From a virus, in the UHGV virus genome UHGV-0350163: DNA of 35,997 bases. One strand, 5' to 3'. This document shows positions 312 to 35,997 of the stretch, piece after piece. The position numbers and the translations under genes are program-made. Positions within the stretch are counted from its first letter, which is position 1. The number at the start of each line of letters is the position of its first letter. The notes under the pieces were generated by a model, which was given only the letters and a program-made list of their open reading frames with translations, searched no databases and was not told where the DNA came from.

Positions 312-2690
312 TCACTGGCCAGACAGCGATGCCAGCATGAAATAATGCAGCTCATCATTCCTTACAGACATTATTTCACCAGCCTCCCTGACCAGCTTGC
401 GCTCTCCGGTATCGTATTCTTCCATTGTAAGGAGTCCGTCAGAACCAAGCTCCATACGAGTCCCGTAAACCACTTCATATTCCGCCGGATATTCATCACG
501 ACACAAAATACCGTAATCAAAAGCGTCCAGCCCTTCCTCAGAGAAGACCTTCTGTACGTCCTGAGCAATCACTCCTACATGCCATCTGGCTGCGTTCCCT
601 TTGCTGGACACTGCATCCCTGAAACGGAACCGACAGATATACCCGAGCAGCTTTCTGGCAACCCTTTTTTCTGCATCCGACAGAATTGTTTCGTCCTGTT
701 TATGAGTCCGGTCTGATGTACTGATACTTCCCGTAGCTGAATAAACCTGTGCGGGTCGCCATGAGGCATAACCGATCGAATACGTATTATCTGTATAAGG
801 GCGGAGATTTCCTGATGAATCTATGCGCCATCTCTTTTCTCCTCCTGTGGCATTTGCATCCTGATTCGTTGCAAAATCAATCACTGTCGCTGACCTGAAC
901 ACAGATGAACCACCGCCAATTACCAGCGTGTTATTCCCCTCTGATGCCTGTTGGTCAACTACCAGTATTTTATCCTGATTTTTACCCGAACCACTTTTCG
1001 AGGCAGCGATAATACGATTAAACTGATCCTCACCATCGCTCTTTTGTGCGATGGTGATAACATTGGACCAGATTGCCTCTCTTTGTCGCTGAAAACCATA
1101 TTCTCCGCTGTCTGTAGTGACAGCTTTATATTTTATTCCACCTTCAGCTGACTCCTGCGTTATATAGAATGTCTGGTTATTAGCATTCTTGATGAACACA
1201 TAATTGTCAGCAGGAATGTCATTTCCACTCAGATCTTTAATCGGTGTCGTGGTTGTATGCAGACAAAACCATTTCTGACTCACAGAACGCATATATGCCA
1301 GAATTTCAGACAGGGATGTGAATACCGTCCCCAACACCGGGTTTACCAACCCCTGGGCACTACGGGGAAATGTTCCAATACTGGCATGAGACACATCAAA
1401 CCCCGTGTACAACCAGGCTGCCTGACGAAAATCAATAGCATCTCTGCCAGTACTGAACTCTTTCATCAGAACAATTCCTTTCTGATAAGCCTGTGGTAAC
1501 CCACGCTCCAGAAAGATATAAAGCGAATATATACTGCCGCCGTCGTCAGAAATACAAATTCCTTCGTTCTCAATGCGCGAAGGTGTAAAACCCTGCCTGG
1601 TAAGCACATCTATCATTTTTTGGGGATGAAGAATGGATTCCTGCTGCTTTACTCCATCCGGAGAAAAGACCTTAACCCCCTGAAACTGGTTAAATCCGGC
1701 TGATGCCCCGGTATTAAAATAGCCACCATAAGAACAGGCAATATAATCGTCTCCCACAGCAATTCCCTGACGTTTTGTGAAGCGTCTTGCATAGCTGTCT
1801 GTGCTTTCCGTGATATATCCGGAATCATGCAACGGTAATGTGAATGTCCCTGTCCGACGAAACTGAAAATCATACACCGCAAATACTGTGCGGGTGATCA
1901 GGCCTCCCACTTCCGGCGCTGACTGTTCAACCACCCAGCGGTTTTTACGATAGCTGAACTGGTTGTAAACACCGACATCATGTTCATCAATTAACGGCAA
2001 TACTGAACCAGAAATTGCCCCATCAAGCGAAAACTGTTTCAGTAATCCATTTTCTCCTGACATGAACAAACGTAATCCACCGTAATCCGTTGTCACCACA
2101 AGGCCTTCGCTGACAACGCCACGACCTCCATTATCGACATAATAATATCCCTCATATTCGCCGGATGTTGTGTACTGAACTATAACGTTCCGTGTCTGCT
2201 TTGGCTCAACGGTATAACTCAGATAGATTTTTTCTCCTGTCACCACAAATCCCTGTGGATACATATATTCCGCACCAGACTGAGCAGCCAGCACCGTATC
2301 GTAGTCCGGGAATAATAACGGCAATTCCATTAAGACACTACGGGAATGGTTAGTGTACAGATTGTTCAATGAACCAGCTTTTACATCCTGTAACCCCAGA
2401 TTTTCAAGAGCGCGTTCTACCGTGCCATCCGATTTGATATCGCCAAACGGATTATTGCGGCTTAACAGCAGCGCACGAAGCGCGGTAAGTAGCTGATCCG
2501 TTTTTTGGAGGGCAGGTTGAATATGTACACTACCAAGAACATTAAGGAGTTCCTGCTGTAAATCACGGATTGCCCCCTGCTGATTGTTTAAATAATCAGC
2601 AGTTACGATGGTTCCTTCTATCCCCTGAGTGGGGTCACCATCATGAAACAATTGATCCGGTGTATTTATCGGGGGCATCAGATTTTGCAT
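312..2690 (-). CDS. Tail fiber / tailspike (792 aa) with C-terminal intramolecular chaperone (peptidase S74-like) domain
   Basis: Last gene of the tail module after the baseplate genes. C-terminal ~130 aa contains SDRTHK...[10 protein letters not shown]...[16 protein letters not shown], which resembles the autoproteolytic chaperone domain of endosialidase-type tailspikes (from memory). Coding sequence is visibly more AT-rich than neighbouring structural genes. Confidence 0.8.
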
Positions 2691-3262
2691 TACTGCTCCT
2701 CCTTATATGTGAAATGGCAATAAGTAAAAGCGGGTTTAAGCTCTTTAAATGTTTCTTCCAGTACAGGGGCACCAAAGGAAAGTAACGGTTCCCCGGCAGC
2801 AGATACTCCGGTTCTGAATCTGTAAGCTGGCGTTTTGCTTCCTGTGACATTAACCTGCCAAATCCATCGGGCATCTGTTATATAGAGACGATCACCACAT
2901 CGGTTTACCCCCGTTCTAAATGGATGGAGTTCAGTAATTGTTATGGTGTACCCGAGGCTGGCTGCAAGTTGTTTAAAATAAGGGATAGATAACCCACCAG
3001 TTGCAGCCATCTTTATAAGAATATTTTCTCGGCGTTCCTGCTGCGTGGCACCATCGCGGGGTATTAATTCATACACTCGTTCCCAGTCAGACAGTGTCAT
3101 GGATGCGTAAAATGGTGTGACAGATGCAAGCACTCGTGCAGCTGACGCTTTTACTTCATCCATAATGGCTGCTTCTGCGTTCAGTTCTGTTGAAATATAT
3201 TTCCCGTTCGGGTCATAGCTGACCGGTGGTAACATGGCACGAAATAAATCAACCGTATTCAT
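2690..3262 (-). CDS. Tail/baseplate protein, Mu gp48-like (DUF2313-like)
   Basis: 190 aa ORF between baseplate J-like gene and tail fiber; position and size match Mu gp48. Confidence 0.6.
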
Positions 3263-3265
3263 GTA

Positions 3266-4345
3266 TTAACTCTCCCGGGGAAATGGCTGGATATCAATAC
3301 TCCCCGGACGCAGCCACTCCCATGTGGATTCATTGACAACTGCTTTTACATTATCTGACGGCATAATAATCCGCCGGTCACTGACGCCAGAAATTAATGA
3401 AATCTGAGTTTCCAGTTGTGAAATAATTAATTCCTGCCCCGGCTCCAGTCGGTTCATAAAATCCGTGATAACTTCAGTTATCTGTGGTTTTATCTGCTCA
3501 ACGGTCAGGCCGCTGGTTTTTACCCGGACAACGAAATCAACGGCTTTTTTCGTCGGGGCCAGTACCATCGTGTCCTTTGCTGTGACCGGGCAGACTTCCT
3601 CAATATGTGCCAGCACGGCATTAATCAGTTCCTGCGAGGGAAGGTCATTGGCTGACGTAATGGCCACATCAACCGTCCCCAGTCCACGACGTAATGGCTC
3701 CACATATGCCGAGGTAACGCCATCCACTTCCAGCGCCCAGCGTTTGTAATCATATTTATTACCGCCAGCGGGCGGCCTGCGCAGAATGTCCAGATAACGC
3801 GCCAGCAGGTCGGCGTTGCTTTCCCTGTCTGTTCCACCGGTCAGGGATTTAATCGTCACCGTGCTGTTGATGCCTTCCGGCGGACTGACCAGCGTTGCCG
3901 TCTGCGTCGTGGATGCATTCGTCAGTGCCCCCGTGGCAGTGCTTTTTACCGTCACCTCTGCGCTGCCTTCGTGGCCGATGGTGCAGTCTGCTGTGGTGGA
4001 CACGCTGACACCTTCACCACGAATTTCCGCACCGGCTGGCAGTGTCTTACCGGGAGTGCCGGTAATCACCACCGGACCGGATGAGGCGGTCGCTTTTTTA
4101 CGAAAAACATTGCGCGTGCGGCAGTGCAGCTCCAGATATTCAGGGTCTGCCGTGTCAGGAAACACCTGACGGAGTATCCACCCCTGATGCATATAAAGCC
4201 CGTCAGCCACACCGGATACGGCATTTGCACGAATGCGGTAATCGCTGTCAGCGCTGGTGTCGATGGTTTCTCCCGGCAGGGCGTTAGCGATATCACGTAG
4301 CTGGCGTTCTGTGTTTTCAGCAACGCCCGGAACAGGAAACGGCAT
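3266..4345 (-). CDS. Baseplate J-like protein (Mu gp47-like)
   Basis: 359 aa ORF in conserved baseplate position; start overlaps upstream stop. Confidence 0.7.
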   Translation of the reverse strand: MPFPVPGVAENTERQLRDIANALPGETIDTSADSDYRIRANAVSGVADGLYMHQGWILRQVFPDTADPEYLELHCRTRNVFRKKATASSGPVVITGTPGKTLPAGAEIRGEGVSVSTTADCTIGHEGSAEVTVKSTATGALTNASTTQTATLVSPPEGINSTVTIKSLTGGTDRESNADLLARYLDILRRPPAGGNKYDYKRWALEVDGVTSAYVEPLRRGLGTVDVAITSANDLPSQELINAVLAHIEEVCPVTAKDTMVLAPTKKAVDFVVRVKTSGLTVEQIKPQITEVITDFMNRLEPGQELIISQLETQISLISGVSDRRIIMPSDNVKAVVNESTWEWLRPGSIDIQPFPRES

Positions 4346-4695
4346 TACATAATCCTCACAGGGTGTTCAAATGTCTGCGGTGTGCCCGCGTTATCCGTGA
4401 CGGTGATTAACAGCAACAGCCAGCCGCGCTGCCCCGGTTTCGTGTCAACAGTAATGGATTTTGCCCGCCCGTCATTGAGCAGGGGCTGAAGTGCCTGGCT
4501 GGCATACTGCGCCGCCAGCCGGTGAACACGGGAAACGTCTTTTTCCCGCTTCAGCTCGTGCAGGCGTGACCCCAGCAACGCATCCGCCCAGTAACTGCCA
4601 AGCGGTGTCGCCAGTCGCAGATAAACCGCGTTATGGAGTGTATAAATCCGGCGGCGTTCGTAGTCGCCGGTTGCAGGTGAAATCGTCTGGTCCAT
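4345..4695 (-). CDS. Small baseplate protein (Mu gp46-like)
   Basis: 116 aa ORF between gp45-like and gp47-like genes. Confidence 0.6.
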   Translation of the reverse strand: MDQTISPATGDYERRRIYTLHNAVYLRLATPLGSYWADALLGSRLHELKREKDVSRVHRLAAQYASQALQPLLNDGRAKSITVDTKPGQRGWLLLLITVTDNAGTPQTFEHPVRIM

Positions 4696-4748
4696 GCCGC
4701 CAGTCTGGCAGCATGGACAGGTCAGAATCAGGTGAGGGTGTTCAGCAC

Positions 4749-5402
4749 TTAATTAACCGGCGTGTCAGACATGCCGTGTGGGGTTGGGTGTTTGTGTGTT
4801 CCGATTTTAACGCCATTAATGGTGACATCAACGGAGGTAAGCACACCACCCACATGGTTGATGTTGCCTTCAAAAGTGGCGGCGTATTCCTTGCCGCCAC
4901 GGATGGCCATGCCACCGTTGCCGGTGATTTTACCTTCCACCGTCAGCTTATCGCTGGCCGTCAGTAACGGTGTCGTGAATGCGGCGTTCTCCTCTGCCTC
5001 AACCTCATAGCGTTTGCATTTCACCCGGTAAACGTCACATTCTGTTTCAATAATCCGCCCGCGCTTCAATACGATTTTCGCGCCTTCGTCGGTATACAGG
5101 GCCACCTCGCCGGGTTTCAGTTCCGTCAGGCGATATGCGCCGTGCTCTGTGGCCACGATGACGGTATGGGAGGTATTGCCATTCAGCGGAACGGCAATAC
5201 CCATTGAGCCGGGCGGCGGGGATGTGGTGAGGCCGTAATGCTGAAAATACTCCGCACCATCCAGCTGTTCGCCTGCCAGCCCGTTCAGCTGAAGTAGCTG
5301 TACTTTGGTCGAACTGTCCACCGTACCGATCACCACCCTGAATGCCTGGCGAACGGCGGCCAGTGCCTGCTGTACGCGCTGATTAACCTTGTCCCACATC
5401 AT
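4749..5402 (-). CDS. Baseplate assembly / spike protein V-like (Mu gp45-like)
   Basis: 217 aa ORF translationally coupled to upstream gene; position matches Mu gp45. Confidence 0.7.
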   Translation of the reverse strand: MMWDKVNQRVQQALAAVRQAFRVVIGTVDSSTKVQLLQLNGLAGEQLDGAEYFQHYGLTTSPPPGSMGIAVPLNGNTSHTVIVATEHGAYRLTELKPGEVALYTDEGAKIVLKRGRIIETECDVYRVKCKRYEVEAEENAAFTTPLLTASDKLTVEGKITGNGGMAIRGGKEYAATFEGNINHVGGVLTSVDVTINGVKIGTHKHPTPHGMSDTPVN

Positions 5403-6610
5403 TTCTCCCAGACCTTAACAATGGCGACCTCTTTTTTCTTTTTGCCCCTGCGGTGATGGCGTTTCTTCTCGCGCGGGAAGGCGTCAGGTATCCACACGCC
5501 GTCCTCCTTAAAGCGAAGCCGGGTTGTCTGCCCGTTCCGGCCTCCGCTGAACTCACGCCCCATCAGGAAAAAGATGGCATCAATGCCGTGGAGTTCGCTG
5601 ACAATCCGCACCCGCTGGCCGGGCTGCCACAGAACACCATCTGCCGTGCGATGACCTGCAACCAGTGCGACGATATCCAGCCCCGACAGGCGGGCATCAC
5701 TCATCATTTTTTTTGCGCGCCAGCTCACCTGCTCCAGATTGCTGGTGTCGCCCTGGGTGATAATCTGCGGGCGGTAATAATCCACGGTGGGGTCGGTGGC
5801 CACGGCTTTCATGTTATGAATGCCTGTCTGACCACTGTCCGTATTACCGCTGTCCTGCCCGGATAATGTGCGCACGCTGCCGTCCTCGTTCCAGATATCC
5901 AGCGGCACCACGGCCACCTGTTTCTTGCTGTCTGCGCGGCGGGCGTGGCTCTGGGCCAGCACCGTCAGTTCGGAGAAACAGCCGTTAATGGATCGGGTAT
6001 CGTCCAGCTCCATCACGTTGTTCCCGGTGCCGTTCAGCTTCAGAATCAGCGTATCCACCGGCGTGGTGGTGTAGTCAGGGCCACCCACAACCAGCGTCCC
6101 GTCAGGCTCAAACCACGGCCATAAGCCGCGACCGGCGGCAGCTTTGGCCAGTGCATCCCACGCACGCATCCCCGGCTCAATAACAACTTTGTCATTACGT
6201 GACACACCGGACGCCTGTATACGGATGCGCTGTATCCCCAGTGGTCTGACTATCCTGTCGATGACCTCGTCCAGCGTCAGCTGGTTGGCGCTGAACACCG
6301 GCGCGGCACAGTCCACCAGGATGGCGGCATCATCACGCCCGGACAGGGCCAGCGTGCAGCTCTGACGGGACACACTACGGCGCACGCTGTCTATGCGCCC
6401 ACTGAGCACCGTTTCATCTCCCACCTGCAACCGGATTTGTGCGCCCCGGACGATATCCGCCGGGAACACCTTTTCAGGCAGCCCCAGCTGAAGCTGCCAG
6501 CCGTCGGCAGCTTTCAGGAAATCGCTGTCAATACGATAACTGCTCCAGTCAGAATGCGACCTTCCGGCAATGACCAGGCTAATTTTGTCTTCGTTATTTG
6601 GCGTAGGCAT
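5399..6610 (-). CDS. Tail protein P (Mu gp44-like, late control D family)
   Basis: 403 aa ORF following N-like gene, overlapping by 17 nt. Confidence 0.7.
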   Translation of the reverse strand: MPTPNNEDKISLVIAGRSHSDWSSYRIDSDFLKAADGWQLQLGLPEKVFPADIVRGAQIRLQVGDETVLSGRIDSVRRSVSRQSCTLALSGRDDAAILVDCAAPVFSANQLTLDEVIDRIVRPLGIQRIRIQASGVSRNDKVVIEPGMRAWDALAKAAAGRGLWPWFEPDGTLVVGGPDYTTTPVDTLILKLNGTGNNVMELDDTRSINGCFSELTVLAQSHARRADSKKQVAVVPLDIWNEDGSVRTLSGQDSGNTDSGQTGIHNMKAVATDPTVDYYRPQIITQGDTSNLEQVSWRAKKMMSDARLSGLDIVALVAGHRTADGVLWQPGQRVRIVSELHGIDAIFFLMGREFSGGRNGQTTRLRFKEDGVWIPDAFPREKKRHHRRGKKKKEVAIVKVWEK

Positions 6611-7943
6611 TAATTACCACCCCGGCGGTTATGTTGTTCGGGTCACGTAACTGCGGGTTCAGGCGTTGCAGTTCTGCCGCACGACTGTAATCGCCGTACC
6701 ACTGCCACGCCAGCAACAGCAGACAGCTGTCCGCCTGCACCTGTTTCTGCGTCAGCGGTGGGCGGCGTGACAGAACCAGCAGGCCGACATCCTGCACGGA
6801 TGCCGCCACGTTTTTCATGCTCTGAATGATTTCCGGGTACATCAGCCCCAGCGGTGATGCGGTTTCGGTTATCCGTTCGCGTTCGCCTTCATAGCGTTCA
6901 CGGAACAGCGTGATGGCAGCCTGTAAGCGGGTGCGCACATCCCCGACCAGTCGCCCGATATCCGCCGGTATAAGCTGTTCTGACTGCGCATCATCAACCA
7001 GTATCGCCATTGCAACACTGGCCAGTTCAGATGCGGCCTGTGTTGCGTAAACTGCTTTCACATCCTGCACATCGTCTGGCGAGGCATCCGCAGGAAGTAC
7101 CACCTCCGGTACTTTATCGCCACTGACCAGGGCAACAGGCAGCGCAACAAATTCATCCATATCAGTGATGACCTTATTCCAGCAGTTCATCACTGTCGCA
7201 GAACTGGCGACGGTCGTCTCTCCTGCCAACCCGGTCCGGGTGGCAGAATCAACACGTTGCAGAACCGGCACCGGTTGCCCGACATCTGATGTGTGGATTT
7301 CCAGCACCTCTGCCAGTTCATTGATAAATTTTCCGGGTTCGCCTGCCAGTGACACGATATTATCGACAGTGGAGACAAAATCACTTTTGAACGACAGCAG
7401 GGTATTCACCAGTGTGGCACGCACTGTCTGGGCTTTTTTAATCATGCTGTTAACGGTATTTAAAGGTGCAGTAACGGCATCAAAAAAATCACTTAACCGC
7501 GCCTGTAAAGTGTCCAGTTCATCAAACAACTGTTGCGCGAACAGCTCCGGTAACGGGGTGCTGAACAACGCGCTACCGGTGCGGTTTTCCAGAAAACTCA
7601 TGTCAATGGTGCAGCTGTCCGGGCTTTCTGCGTCATGGCGGATGCTGTAGCCGGTCACAATCACCGACGGCACAGAGCCATAAACCGGATGAATCAGTTC
7701 ACCATCGCCGCCTTCATCCAGGGCGGCGGTCAGTTTCCCGAGTTTATATTCATAGTCATCGCCCCACAGGAACGCCGTCATGCGGAACGGTCGCGCCTTG
7801 CGTCCGAGGTCGTGCAAATCCGCCCCGTCAACAAACGGGTATTCATAGACCGCATGGTCGCGGCTGATTTGTTCGTCAGTATTCAGCACCTCAAACTGCA
7901 CGCCACGAAAGGAAGCGTTTTGCAGGTTTTCAGCCCAGCCCAT
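6594..7943 (-). CDS. DNA circularisation protein N-like (Mu gp43-like)
   Basis: 449 aa; N-terminus MGWAENLQNASFRGVQFEV resembles the Mu N family N-terminal signature (from memory); directly downstream of the tape measure gene. Confidence 0.75.
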   Translation of the reverse strand: MGWAENLQNASFRGVQFEVLNTDEQISRDHAVYEYPFVDGADLHDLGRKARPFRMTAFLWGDDYEYKLGKLTAALDEGGDGELIHPVYGSVPSVIVTGYSIRHDAESPDSCTIDMSFLENRTGSALFSTPLPELFAQQLFDELDTLQARLSDFFDAVTAPLNTVNSMIKKAQTVRATLVNTLLSFKSDFVSTVDNIVSLAGEPGKFINELAEVLEIHTSDVGQPVPVLQRVDSATRTGLAGETTVASSATVMNCWNKVITDMDEFVALPVALVSGDKVPEVVLPADASPDDVQDVKAVYATQAASELASVAMAILVDDAQSEQLIPADIGRLVGDVRTRLQAAITLFRERYEGERERITETASPLGLMYPEIIQSMKNVAASVQDVGLLVLSRRPPLTQKQVQADSCLLLLAWQWYGDYSRAAELQRLNPQLRDPNNITAGVVINAYAK

Positions 7944-10216
7944 CAGTAAGTTCCTCCCGTACCTCTGTTACCGTCCTGAAGGTTGTATTTGTTCACTGCC
8001 TCCGCCACGACCTGACCATCGAGCACCAGTTGTGTGGTGAAATTAATGGGGCTGGCAGGTGGCCCCCAGTGCGTGAGGTATTCCGGCTGGGTGATGCGTC
8101 CGGGTTGTGTTGATGCCGGTTCAGGCTTTGTGTTTCCTGCGGCTTTGTTAACCTGCGCCGGTGATGGCAGGGCATCAGCTGCGGCTTTTTTCCTGTCTTC
8201 CTCCCAGCGCCTCAACCATTCTTCGTTTTCGGTGGAATAGCCTTCCCCAAACTGCCACCATGGCTGGTATTTTTTGCGGGCGGCGTCGATTTCTTCCTGG
8301 GTGTATCGGGCGCGGATGCGTTTCCAGCGTTCTTCGCTTCCTTCGACGGCGGCGTCTTCTTCCGGGCTGGTTGCGGTGGCCAGTGCCGTAACAGTGCCAC
8401 CTAAAGAAAGCAGGCCACCGGCAATACCGGGGAATTTAAATCCTTTGCCTTTTTTGACCGTGTTTTCAATTACATCACCAACAACCTCGCCAGCCTTGCC
8501 ACCGGGTTTACCCCCGGTCAGGATTTTGATCCCGGCCCATGTCAGAGCCGCTGCGGTCATCGCTTCAATTGCGGTCGTAGCACCCACCACTGCCGTGGTC
8601 AGCCCCGGAAACTTTTCACCCGCCCAGCTTATGGCATCGGCCACAGTACCGGACGCATCAGCCAGCTTTTTCACGCTGTCCATTTGTGAAAATTCAAGCG
8701 TGTTTTTAGCCTGTTCGGTTTTAAAATCATTGAGGCCGGATATGAATCTGAAATCAACATCCCCCGCGCGCTGGCCTTCCGGCAGGGTACGTTGCTGATT
8801 AATCGCGTCTTCAACCTTCTTACGGTATTCCGGGTTGTTACGGTAGGCTAACAACGCCATCAACGCCTGACGGTCTGCAACCAGTTTCCCGACACCAAAG
8901 CCTTCAAGGAGTTTTGCCATCGAATCGTAAACAGCCGTCTGTTCACCTTTATCCCGGGCAGATGACAGTTTCTTTTGCAACTCCTGATAGCGTTTATCGT
9001 TGGCAACGATTTTATCTATCAGGCTGGAAAGCGCGTCTATCGGATCCAGTCCATGCTTGCGCGCTTCAGTCAGCGTACCTGAAAAATCAATCCCTTTACC
9101 GTTGTAATCAATGCTCTTTGCCGCAGTTTCAATATCATGGCTGGTCAGTTTAGCCAGCAGGTTAACCACGTTATTCCCTGCTTCATCACTGCTACCAGCC
9201 GTGATCGCGGCGGCTTCATTCAGCGCAAGAATCTTGACGAAATCATCCTTGCCTTTCATTCCCGCAGCTGACGCAGAACCCATTTGTTGGGATAACCAGC
9301 GGGCCATATCGTTCAGTTCAAAGCTGCCTTCTTTTCCTGCCGCAATCGCCATATTCAGGACAGTGGAAATATCTTCATCCTGGAATCCAAAGGTCTTTTT
9401 GCCCTTAAGCATCACATTAGCCAGGTCTGTCGCTGATGCACCAGAAGCCGTGGCGTATTTCATCAGTTCAGGTAACCACTTGCTGGCTGTGTCAAATGAA
9501 ATACCGCCATCTTTCAGCAGGGCATCCAGTGTTTCGGCTGCATCCTCTTTTGTGCCGCCACCATAGGTCACCGCGTTACGGATGCTGCTTTTCATCTGCT
9601 CAAGACCGGCTTTGCGCCCCTCCAGCCCGCCATCACTGAAGGCGGTATTGGCCATCATTGCCAGCTGGCGTTCGTAGCTCATCTGCTTTTTGACCGGCTG
9701 CGCCATAATGGCAGCACCTGCCGCGATACCACCACCTATTGTCACGGCATTCCCGCCAAATGCAGCCGCACGCGCAAAACGCCCCCGTTCGGGGATAACA
9801 GGCGTTTTCGCCATCTTCATCTGAGCCTGAGTAACGCCATCCAGTTCACGCTTGAGTGCCCGGGCTTTTTCCCGGGTGGCCTGCATGGCGCGCTCCTGCT
9901 CCTGCGCAGATTCAAAACCGGCACGGGCCAGACGGTTATAGCTGGCAACCGTCTGATAAATTTCACGCCGGATTTCACGTTCTGCACGAATACCGAGCGT
10001 TTCCCGGGCACGGGCGGCACGCTGTATCTCTTTTGCCGCCTTTTTCGTGCTGTTAACGCTTTCCTGCCCGGTACGCGTCTGCTCTGCGCCTGCCTTCCGG
10101 GTTGCCTTTGTTACACCTTCGGTGGCTTTGATAACCTGTTTTTGTCCCTTTTCCAGAACCTGCGAGGCTTCGTCCTTCGCAGTCAGGGTCATGCCAACTT
10201 TGAAATTACCGGCCAT
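7943..10216 (-). CDS. Tail tape measure protein
   Basis: 757 aa, Ala/Gly/Lys-rich with long coiled-coil-like N-terminal part; between chaperone and N as in myophage tail modules. RBS AAGG upstream of ATG at 10216. Confidence 0.85.
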   Translation of the reverse strand: MAGNFKVGMTLTAKDEASQVLEKGQKQVIKATEGVTKATRKAGAEQTRTGQESVNSTKKAAKEIQRAARARETLGIRAEREIRREIYQTVASYNRLARAGFESAQEQERAMQATREKARALKRELDGVTQAQMKMAKTPVIPERGRFARAAAFGGNAVTIGGGIAAGAAIMAQPVKKQMSYERQLAMMANTAFSDGGLEGRKAGLEQMKSSIRNAVTYGGGTKEDAAETLDALLKDGGISFDTASKWLPELMKYATASGASATDLANVMLKGKKTFGFQDEDISTVLNMAIAAGKEGSFELNDMARWLSQQMGSASAAGMKGKDDFVKILALNEAAAITAGSSDEAGNNVVNLLAKLTSHDIETAAKSIDYNGKGIDFSGTLTEARKHGLDPIDALSSLIDKIVANDKRYQELQKKLSSARDKGEQTAVYDSMAKLLEGFGVGKLVADRQALMALLAYRNNPEYRKKVEDAINQQRTLPEGQRAGDVDFRFISGLNDFKTEQAKNTLEFSQMDSVKKLADASGTVADAISWAGEKFPGLTTAVVGATTAIEAMTAAALTWAGIKILTGGKPGGKAGEVVGDVIENTVKKGKGFKFPGIAGGLLSLGGTVTALATATSPEEDAAVEGSEERWKRIRARYTQEEIDAARKKYQPWWQFGEGYSTENEEWLRRWEEDRKKAAADALPSPAQVNKAAGNTKPEPASTQPGRITQPEYLTHWGPPASPINFTTQLVLDGQVVAEAVNKYNLQDGNRGTGGTY

Positions 10217-10378
10217 TTTTCTGTTTACCTTTTCTGCGTTTCTTTCTGAGAGATTTAAATGACTGGCGGGTGGTCTGTGAGGTGTCCTTTCTTCCTGAGC
10301 CGCCGCCGTTCAGCCTGTCAACGGCGGCAAGCCAGCCGTCCAGCTCGGGACGGCTCATGGTCATGATTTGTTCTTCGG

Positions 10379-10762
10379 TTATTCCGTAGCGCCCGAGGAT
10401 AAGGACTGCGAGCCGGAGTCCGGCGAGCCGGGATTCCCGCCGTTCCGCTTTACCTTCAGGACGTTGCGTGATGCCAGCAGAATATTAAAATCTTCCGGCG
10501 TCATGTTGTCGTGCAACAGCTCCGCCGTCAGTTCTTCCTGCGGAATATCCCCCAGACGGACCAGCGTTGCCGCCATCACCGCACAGCGGTAGTAATAATC
10601 CGCCGCGAAGCCGTCCACTGTCTGAAAGCGTTCTTCAGTTTCTTCCAGTGCCTGCCCGTTATCACGCATGACCGGCAGACGCAGCTCAAAGTTTTTATGA
10701 ATGGTGCCGTTAAAAACCAGGCCATCGGACAGTTCGCCGGTCTGTGTAGCGATAATCGTCAT
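10379..10762 (-). CDS. Tail assembly chaperone (Mu gp41-like)
   Basis: 127 aa acidic ORF between tube and tape measure genes. Confidence 0.6.
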   Translation of the reverse strand: MTIIATQTGELSDGLVFNGTIHKNFELRLPVMRDNGQALEETEERFQTVDGFAADYYYRCAVMAATLVRLGDIPQEELTAELLHDNMTPEDFNILLASRNVLKVKRNGGNPGSPDSGSQSLSSGATE

Positions 10763-11133
10763 CCTTCCACCTTCCTGAGTGCAGCCATTTTGATATCAAT
10801 TTTCGCTTCATTATCGACGGTGTATTTCTCACCCACTTCGGTTGTGAAGCAGTCCAGATAAGAGGTGCGTTTGCCGCTGTTACTGAGCGGGTACAGCGAG
10901 ATTTTCACACCTTCCAGATTTTCCCAGTCCGGCTCGTTGGTATCAGGAATAACCGCCGAAACGGACAGTTCGTAGGTGGCAATGCCACGGGCAAAGCCTT
11001 TAGCCCTGCCGGTTTTGTTCATGGTCTTGACCAGCTTTCGCCCGGTGTTGATCTGAACATCAAGGTCGGTGATCTCGATTTCCTGGCTGTCAATTTCCAA
11101 CACAATCGAGCCGATATATTCTTTCAGGGACAT
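10759..11133 (-). CDS. Tail tube protein (Mu M-like)
   Basis: 124 aa ORF immediately after the sheath gene. Confidence 0.75.
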   Translation of the reverse strand: MSLKEYIGSIVLEIDSQEIEITDLDVQINTGRKLVKTMNKTGRAKGFARGIATYELSVSAVIPDTNEPDWENLEGVKISLYPLSNSGKRTSYLDCFTTEVGEKYTVDNEAKIDIKMAALRKVEG

Positions 11134-35527: not shown

Positions 35528-35706
35528 ACGCCTACTACTTGGTAGGCGTATGCTGCCAACTAACTAGCGACATCCAACAAAACCAATACCGACAACTGAT
35601 AAGAAAGGAATAAATCAGACAAGATTAGAACGGGCTTTAGAATCTTTTAAACGAGTTTTAAAATCTTTTAAAAGGAGATCGCTTTCTTACACCACCAGAT
35701 CAAAAG

Positions 35707-35841
35707 CGCCCAGAATAAAGCGTAAAAAAAGGCACTTTTGGTCATTTCTCACAAATCCGCCCAGAATCACACTAAATCACCATACCCCGCGCCACACAAG
35801 GCTTGCAGGTTCTACCAGGCTGCACGAACTCCGCCCAGAAT
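35707..35841 (+). repeat. Three direct copies of CGCCCAGAAT (35707-35716, 35758-35767, 35832-35841); candidate left-end transposase binding sites
   Basis: Read directly; spacing 51 and 74 bp; same decamer occurs inverted at the other end (148-157). Confidence 0.55.
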
Positions 35842-35847
35842 TGATCA

Positions 35848-35997
35848 CTACCCCACATTTTGTGGTGCATTTTGTTGCTGTGCCAACAGTTCTGCAGCCA
35901 GTGCGACGGTTTTTTGCGGGGCAAACGGGCGTTCGCAACGGCTGCAACGTTGTAGATGGAACGTCGCGCGGGTATAGAGATCGGCTTTATTGGTGAC
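35848..35997 (-). CDS. Possible 3' end of a host gene interrupted by the prophage (partial)
   Basis: Minus-strand frame is open from the window edge to TAG at 35848-35850 (50 codons); no motif recognised; weak evidence. Confidence 0.2.

Follow-up and report, generated by a model that had tools for sequence, protein, structure and literature searches.

A tail fibre with a predicted five-bladed beta-propeller and an S74 intramolecular chaperone in a Mu-like prophage of Escherichia coli

The fibre gene and its position in the prophage

The 35,997-nt stretch of DNA from virus genome UHGV-0350163 (the window, to the whole of which all coordinates refer) is a transposable prophage of the Mu type. 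It encodes MuA-like transposase domains, a MuB-like ATPase, a Ner-like winged helix-turn-helix protein and a CI-type repressor, together with a Mu portal, gpF, gpT, a sheath and a DNA-circularisation protein. The subject of this work is its tail fibre gene, which lies on the minus strand at 312-2690 and is an intact open reading frame (ORF) of 792 amino acids (aa) with an ATG start. The product joins a Mu-type adaptor to a predicted beta-propeller and a C-terminal S74 chaperone. On the same strand, upstream of the fibre gene, are homologues of Mu gp48 (expectation value, E, 1e-13), gp47 (Baseplate_J), gp46 and gp45. The same prophage is present in six complete E. coli genomes at 98.5-99.9% identity, with a match that begins at position 110, where the sequence starts with TG. 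Since these genomes match only from position 110, just ~200 bp separate the fibre stop codon from the prophage end and the fibre is the terminal gene, as a sequence-only reading of the window had claimed for this 792-aa product.

The first 64 residues (2499-2690; this and all further segments of the fibre gene, including its 3' tail, are on the minus strand) form a backbone-specific baseplate adaptor of the Mu gpS constant-region type, which is common to the short fibres of relatives that share the prophage backbone. Identity to these short fibres is 65% over aa 1-132 for E2348/69 and 67% over aa 1-66 for STEC313. Residues 4-103 align to Mu gpS aa 12-112 with 32% identity (BLASTP, E 4e-6), which is consistent with docking at the same baseplate position.

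C-terminal S74 chaperone and predicted autocleavage

The C-terminal domain (aa 659-792, 15.3 kDa; 315-716) is a Peptidase_S74 intramolecular chaperone. PF13884 matches at the extreme C-terminus (aa 659-721 of 792) with E 1.3e-9 and 38.6 bits, above the gathering cutoff of 22 and over the full profile (1-58/58). Searches with phmmer against PDB sequences retrieved T5 pb1 with its chaperone (4uw8, E 8.5e-17), a neck appendage protein (3gud, 1.4e-14), endoNF (3gw6, 8.3e-14) and two further phage fibres or spikes. These matches are far beyond chance. Together with the retained catalytic residues described below, they confirm what the sequence-only reading had proposed, namely that the C-terminus resembles the S74 chaperone of endosialidase-type tailspikes and T5-like fibres. 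The C-terminal motif ...STSDRTHK, on which that proposal was based, is present at aa 656-664 and the second motif it gave is at aa 706-716.

Preceding the chaperone is a beta-stalk, presumably trimeric (aa 541-658; 717-1070), which by alignment to T5 pb1 holds D634 and R645 of a cleavage-competence sensor. Residues 604-658 can be aligned with the final interdigitated region of T5 pb1 (4uw7, 5aq5, 4uw8), and PF12219 (End_tail_spike) has a weak match at aa 622-658. The mechanism put forward for K1F and T5 has Arg1250 from an adjacent chain lying between Asp1239 and Thr1263 while Lys1269 activates Ser1264; cleavage of the T5 Thr1263-Ser1264 bond has to await formation of the triple beta-structure (PMC4690869). 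Pairwise alignment maps D634, R645, the T658-S659 bond and K664 of the window protein to T5 D1239, R1250, T1263-S1264 and K1269, respectively. The Ser-Lys dyad is present in an S-D-x-x-x-K motif (T658-S659-D660-R-T-H-K664), with S659 the predicted nucleophile and K664 the predicted base. The isolated neck-appendage chaperone 3gud starts with SDERHK, which aligns to S659-DRTHK664. All 15 homologues that have an S74 domain retain D634, R645, S659, D660 and K664, while position 658 is either T or S.

From these residues we infer that the fibre undergoes autocleavage at the predicted scissile bond T658-S659, which would give products of 72.4 kDa (aa 1-658) and 15.3 kDa (aa 659-792). Retention of the S74 domain on the mature fibre, uncleaved and as a permanent distal domain, might be entertained as some S74-bearing proteins are poorly studied. 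It is improbable, however, because all of the mechanism residues are kept in the 15 homologues and because a chaperone left uncleaved in T5 prevents receptor competition (PMC4690869).

A predicted five-bladed beta-propeller

The central region is predicted to be a five-bladed beta-propeller 'platform' (aa 116-450; 1341-2345). The full-length AlphaFold model is confident (predicted local distance difference test, pLDDT, 80-95) only at aa ~110-535, and a domain-only model agrees with it. The predicted strands make up five four-stranded blades (~aa 142-186, 197-238, 245-286, 307-354 and 372-411), and a strand at aa 116-123 closes the propeller. Foldseek searches of the PDB placed the receptor-binding proteins (RBPs) of the Staphylococcus phages NF5, phi11 (Gp45), 80alpha and P68 in the top ranks (E 5e-13 to 4e-9), and BFVD added the fibre of Staphylococcus phage vB_SscM-1 (E 3e-32) and the GA-1 neck appendage protein (E 1.4e-11). 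In the model the five-bladed platform lies between the stem and a distal beta domain, as it does in RBPs of the phi11 Gp45 type.

These predictions overturn the suggestion of the sequence-only reading that the central ~450 aa could be beta-helical. A right-handed beta-helix, as in the P22-, HK620- and K5-lyase-type tailspikes, would be in keeping with the S74 domain, which accompanies beta-helical spikes in some phages, and with one weak PHROG label, 'tail spike'. At the level of structure prediction it is ruled out, as the models show four-stranded blades and no beta-helix tailspike was among the matches in three structure libraries; we give it next to no credence.

Phage phi11 Gp45 is a trimer made up of stem, platform and tower, and its five-bladed propeller has a modelled N-acetylglucosamine (GlcNAc) cavity lined by Gln165, Thr211 and Gln330 (PMC4901313). 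Two motifs of the propeller family, PQ146GF and RQ308G, are in register with Gp45 MQ165SF and MQ330G but not significantly so, and the hidden Markov model (HMM) of the family scores ~0 bits against Gp45. Profile searches of PDB sequences with propeller alignments of 9 and of 66 sequences returned noise only. Sequence homology to phi11 Gp45 is therefore not claimed, since neither the HMM nor the hhalign comparison is significant.

The propeller is followed by a helix and a five-stranded beta-sheet, a tower-like domain assigned from predicted secondary structure (aa 455-540; 1071-1328) that belongs to the conserved core of the family. Most members of the propeller family align through profile position ~430, which corresponds to ~aa 535. 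This domain may resemble the phi11 tower domain, which is made up of a five-stranded sheet and a short helix (PMC4901313).

The propeller family and its conserved residues

In whole-protein scans, no Pfam or NCBIfam model covers aa ~100-600. Searches of Pfam with the propeller alone and with 66 family members gave nothing relevant and no match to a CAZy-type family. At 50% identity, an exhaustive profile/HMM search recovered at least 356 clusters, of which 230 had E<=1e-30, and their common core is at aa ~112-535. This exhaustive search was needed to establish the extent of the family, as only a few further relatives were gained when the propeller alignment was used in a word-indexed search of proteins.

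In RefSeq, the Prokaryotic Genome Annotation Pipeline (PGAP) systematically divides the intact 792/791-aa ORF (window 312-2690; 4203-6581 of locus L001; 6108-8483 of locus L002) between a 'pseudogene' for the N-terminal part (named gp53-like or StfP and 'missing C-terminus') and a coding sequence of 326 aa, WP_225934952.1, which starts at the internal M467. The whole propeller (aa ~101-466) is thus left unannotated, and the same feature names recur among the listed matches in other genomes. Such an annotation, made in the complete genomes inspected, implies a gene that is a decayed remnant. This is very unlikely: the ORF is unbroken in both contexts (792 and 791 aa), full-length 791-aa proteins are found in NCBI (365 member sequences), and the module is present at >=99% identity in 57 genomes with its predicted catalytic and pocket residues intact. 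The lack of a family model for aa ~100-600 explains the split.

Across 150 highly divergent representatives of the family, K306, Q308, E374 and E376 are 99-100% invariant and Q146, E195, R267, E411 and D420 are 85-89% invariant. The conserved positions lie where the inner strands predicted for the blades begin, which, going by the fold, would be the usual site of the ligand or of catalysis in five-bladed propellers. It is possible, if doubtful, that the propeller is an enzyme, i.e. a glycan hydrolase, lyase or esterase with O-antigen or capsule as its substrate, and that the fibre is a true depolymerase tailspike, a role that the sequence-only reading had held possible, instead of a lectin-like binder. 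The residues K306, Q308, E374 and E376, and to a lesser degree E195, R267, E411 and D420, are invariant despite differing host surfaces and map to inner strands predicted for blades 2, 4 and 5; moreover, n-bladed propellers are counted among the phage depolymerase folds (PMC11326577, PMC12491483), albeit as a minority fold whose properties 'remain unclear' (PMC12491483). Against catalysis, the best structural matches (the phi11, NF5, 80alpha and P68 RBPs) are without reported catalytic activity, these closest characterised relatives being binding platforms (PMC4901313), and the sequence matches no CAZy-type Pfam family. Staphylococcus myophages fuse the propeller to a separate GDPD-annotated region (phrog_22693), which suggests that there the propeller serves in binding. 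A bolder form of the proposal, that the pocket of the whole family (K306/Q308/E374/E376 with E195) is a catalytic or metal-dependent centre and the family a new class of surface-glycan-processing enzymes, not lectins, is unlikely. If it were true, the 'binding-only' view of the phi11-type platform would be incomplete.

Only 30 of 149 family representatives have an S74 domain, so the propeller and the chaperone are independent modules. Two homologues (31-32% identity) keep the propeller and the stalk, end ~45 aa past the stalk with another short C-terminus and have no S74 domain; the same receptor-binding core thus exists with and without a built-in chaperone. The family spans phages of staphylococci and enterobacteria and includes Staphylococcus phage members at 22-30% identity. 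In more distant homologues (46-75% identity), the module is fused to PF12571, PF18668, PF09008 (P22 head-binding) or PF03906 (T7 fibre) adaptors; with StfP, at least five adaptor types other than that of the window protein carry it.

The module is also found in Kayfunavirus and other lytic coliphages. Five homologues from lytic coliphages and Salmonella phages, which align over aa 117-787, bear the GenBank label 'endo-N-acetylneuraminidase'. These labelled homologues (36-37% identity), and a layout that parallels endoNF, are what could be cited for an endosialidase, i.e. a K1-capsule depolymerase, but this is hardly credible. PF12217, PF12195 and PF12218, the models of the six-bladed sialidase propeller and nested barrel, do not match the window protein; PF12219 matches below threshold and in its last 37 positions only; and the endoNF matches in the PDB are confined to 3gw6, a construct of the stalk end and the chaperone. 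The window protein is most likely not an endosialidase, as judged from these comparisons, and the label most likely spread from the Pfam name of PF13884, 'Chaperone of endosialidase'. The Kayfunavirus propeller RBPs discussed in the literature are true K1 endosialidases. The literature yielded nothing specific on a characterised five-bladed-propeller RBP in coliphages or on Mu-like phages with S74 fibres.

Exchange of the receptor-binding cassette

The backbone (2700-7900) is present in 60 of 5426 complete E. coli genomes, only six of which have this fibre. The receptor-binding cassette, at >=99% identity, is mostly located in another element, downstream of ymfQ and behind an StfP-type N-terminus. 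Pairwise blastn comparisons delimit the exchanged segment on both sides. The StfP-type element matches 205-2498 at 99.7% identity, while E2348/69 matches 2392-4400 (95.7%) and 110-204 (91.6%), the latter segment also being matched by STEC313 at 89.9%. The two matches overlap by 107 bp, which encode a conserved linker (aa 65-100; 2392-2498), the zone in which the cassette swap crossed over on its left side and the only segment common to the Mu-like backbone relative and the StfP-type element. Fibre genes (gp53-like, StfP, tail fibre) in most of the 1447 E. coli genomes that match the 205-2498 query contain this ~100-bp linker at 86-94% identity, as do SfV, SfI, SfII and SfIV. Judging from these alignments, the crossover evidently took place within the linker.

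The right junction is 107 bp beyond the stop codon. The 3' non-coding tail (205-311) was transferred along with the cassette, as the 99.7% identity to the StfP-type element reaches position 205, and it takes in a terminator-like hairpin (274-302) of 11 pairs, followed by CATGCATTTT, with an RNA fold z-score of -2.8. That the receptor-binding region is horizontally exchanged, as the sequence-only reading had suggested, is borne out by these exact junctions, which are stronger evidence than the base composition used for the original claim.

The fibre gene has a G+C content (GC) of 0.459, and of 0.427 at third codon positions (GC3). It is more AT-rich than gp47, gp46, gp45, gp44, gpN and the tape measure gene (GC 0.54-0.59, GC3 0.55-0.70), in line with the earlier claim that it differs from the rest of the tail module, but this does not hold against the backbone gene gp48 (GC 0.452, GC3 0.372) or the 3' end of gp47 (low GC within 2690-3600). 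In backbone relatives, gp48 and the C-terminal portion of gp47 are both conserved (86-96%), and both are outside the exchanged cassette. Since the non-exchanged gp48 is equally AT-rich, low GC alone is weak and misleading evidence, and it was rejected as sufficient proof of transfer. The AT-richness of gp48 and of the gp47 3' end may stem from an earlier exchange that involved the distal baseplate-wedge region.

Outside the cassette, the right terminus of the Mu-like prophage (110-204, no strand) is part of the backbone and contains a perfect 19-nt inverted repeat (138-156/177-195). The core of this repeat, the 9-mer GCCCAGAAT, recurs three times near the other end (~35710, ~35760 and ~35833; region 35705-35845), and its copies are candidate MuA-type transposase binding sites. 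A candidate 5-bp target duplication, obtained in a by-eye search for the other terminus (GTTTT at 105-109 and TTTTG at 35870-35874), was unconvincing and was rejected.

Absence of Tfa and of an inversion system

Backbone relatives have a fibre of 249-267 aa and separate Tfa genes. The E2348/69 prophage (3630-5991 of locus L003) encodes a 249-aa fibre and Tfa, along with an oppositely oriented Tfa and a gp53-like C-terminal fragment. This inverted Tfa'/S' pair recalls the Mu G segment, but the annotation shows no invertase in the interval up to the prophage end. Searches of the window by tblastn with Tfa proteins from two backbone relatives and with a Gin probe, validated against Mu Gin (99.5% identity), gave no match at E<=1 other than noise, and no inverted repeats flanking the fibre gene were found. 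Downstream of the fibre gene there is no room for further genes. The sequence-only reading had been correct in stating that a separate fibre chaperone, an invertible G segment and Gin are missing.

A Tfa gene is missing from four independent contexts of the module, namely Mu-like, StfP-type, HP1/P2-like and one directly before a lysis cassette. In the HP1/P2-like context, an Atlantibacter prophage (8056-10991 of locus L005), the propeller-S74 fibre is followed by a 248-aa gene, an HP1_ORF34-family gene and a 564-aa gene, with no Tfa; these three genes may be a second fibre or spike set.

Proposed mechanism and origin

The window protein is read here as a modular, presumably homotrimeric RBP with the order adaptor, linker, propeller, tower, stalk and S74 chaperone, in which everything beyond the adaptor was acquired as a cassette by way of the linker. 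We put the probability of this reading at roughly 80%. It builds on domain content and residue conservation, on the predicted fold and the mapped junctions, and on the lack of both Tfa and Gin. The Mu gpS-type adaptor (aa 1-64) would dock the protein to the gp47/gp48 baseplate, and the S74 chaperone would trimerise and act as a template on which the stalk folds. Correct interdigitation of the stalk would bring R645 of the neighbouring chain between D634 and T658, and K664 would then activate S659, such that the T658-S659 bond is cleaved and the chaperone (15 kDa) departs, leaving a mature subunit of 72 kDa. With folding help built in, no Tfa-type chaperone gene would be needed. The central cavity of the propeller, with its putative conserved polar pocket, most likely binds an E. 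coli surface carbohydrate, either O-antigen or capsule. The whole cassette (205 to ~2391-2498) would have been gained by recombination within the conserved linker and would have replaced the ancestral short fibre, its Tfa and the inverted Tfa'/S' pair.

Several points weigh against this reading. Trimer formation, cleavage, baseplate docking and glycan binding are steps that we infer. The stalk is modelled with low pLDDT, and it and the N-terminus are poorly modelled as only a monomer could be predicted. The link to phi11 Gp45 is one of fold only, with an hhalign probability of 2.8% and no HMM match. Near-invariant acidic and basic residues in phages of both Gram-positive and Gram-negative hosts are unusual for a pure specificity pocket, and such invariance could instead mean catalysis or metal binding. 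Furthermore, the propeller does not depend on the chaperone.

The window protein joins kinds that are already known, i.e. S74-bearing RBPs, propeller RBPs and mosaic tail fibres, and is an ordinary case of module exchange; the current understanding of how such proteins work is unchanged. It goes modestly beyond what is known in two respects, namely an exceptionally well-delimited swap and an uncurated propeller family with a putative invariant polar pocket. The former is a natural exchange of a fibre cassette with a mapped junction on either side and with sequences of both donor type and recipient type available, and it indicates that a self-chaperoning RBP can take the place of a whole fibre, Tfa and invertible-segment apparatus in a Mu-like phage. 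The latter flags a sizeable family of propeller RBPs that has no curated model, is split by RefSeq and includes members mislabelled as endosialidases in GenBank. For the prediction and engineering of host range, the linker (aa 65-100) could be reused as a swap point and the built-in chaperone could be reused with it.

Comparison with known systems

In Mu, the slot directly after gp48 holds S, U, U', S', gin, com and mom. Compared with the Mu S/gp49 and U/gp50 Tfa system, the window prophage shares the slot, the baseplate neighbours and an N-terminal ~100 aa homologous to the S constant region. Unlike Mu, it is without Tfa, the alternative S'/U' set, the inverted repeats, Gin and com/mom; the distance from the fibre to the prophage end is 2.6 kb, as opposed to ~5.3 kb in Mu, and the phage cannot switch host range by inversion.

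T5 pb1 and endoNF, like the window protein, have a C-terminal chaperone of ~130 aa behind a trimeric interdigitated beta region and no separate Tfa gene, and the endoNF order of adaptor, propeller, stalk and chaperone is the same as in the window protein. The receptor-binding parts are unrelated, being a bullet-shaped beta domain in T5, a six-bladed sialidase propeller with a nested barrel in endoNF and a five-bladed non-sialidase propeller in the window protein.

The phi11 RBP Gp45 (PDB 5EFV; relatives in 80alpha, P68 and NF5), by fold the closest solved relative, has ~11% identity to the window protein, without a significant sequence or profile match. It belongs to a siphovirus of a Gram-positive host, binds wall teichoic acid in a GlcNAc-dependent manner and ends in two tower domains without an S74 chaperone, whereas the window protein has one. 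The neck appendage protein of the Bacillus phage GA-1, a podovirus of a Gram-positive host, matches the window propeller in its predicted structure with 12% identity, and the propeller relation is known from predicted structure only. If 3GUD is from this protein, as we presume it to be, then the combination of a propeller with S74 already exists among the founding members of the S74 family.

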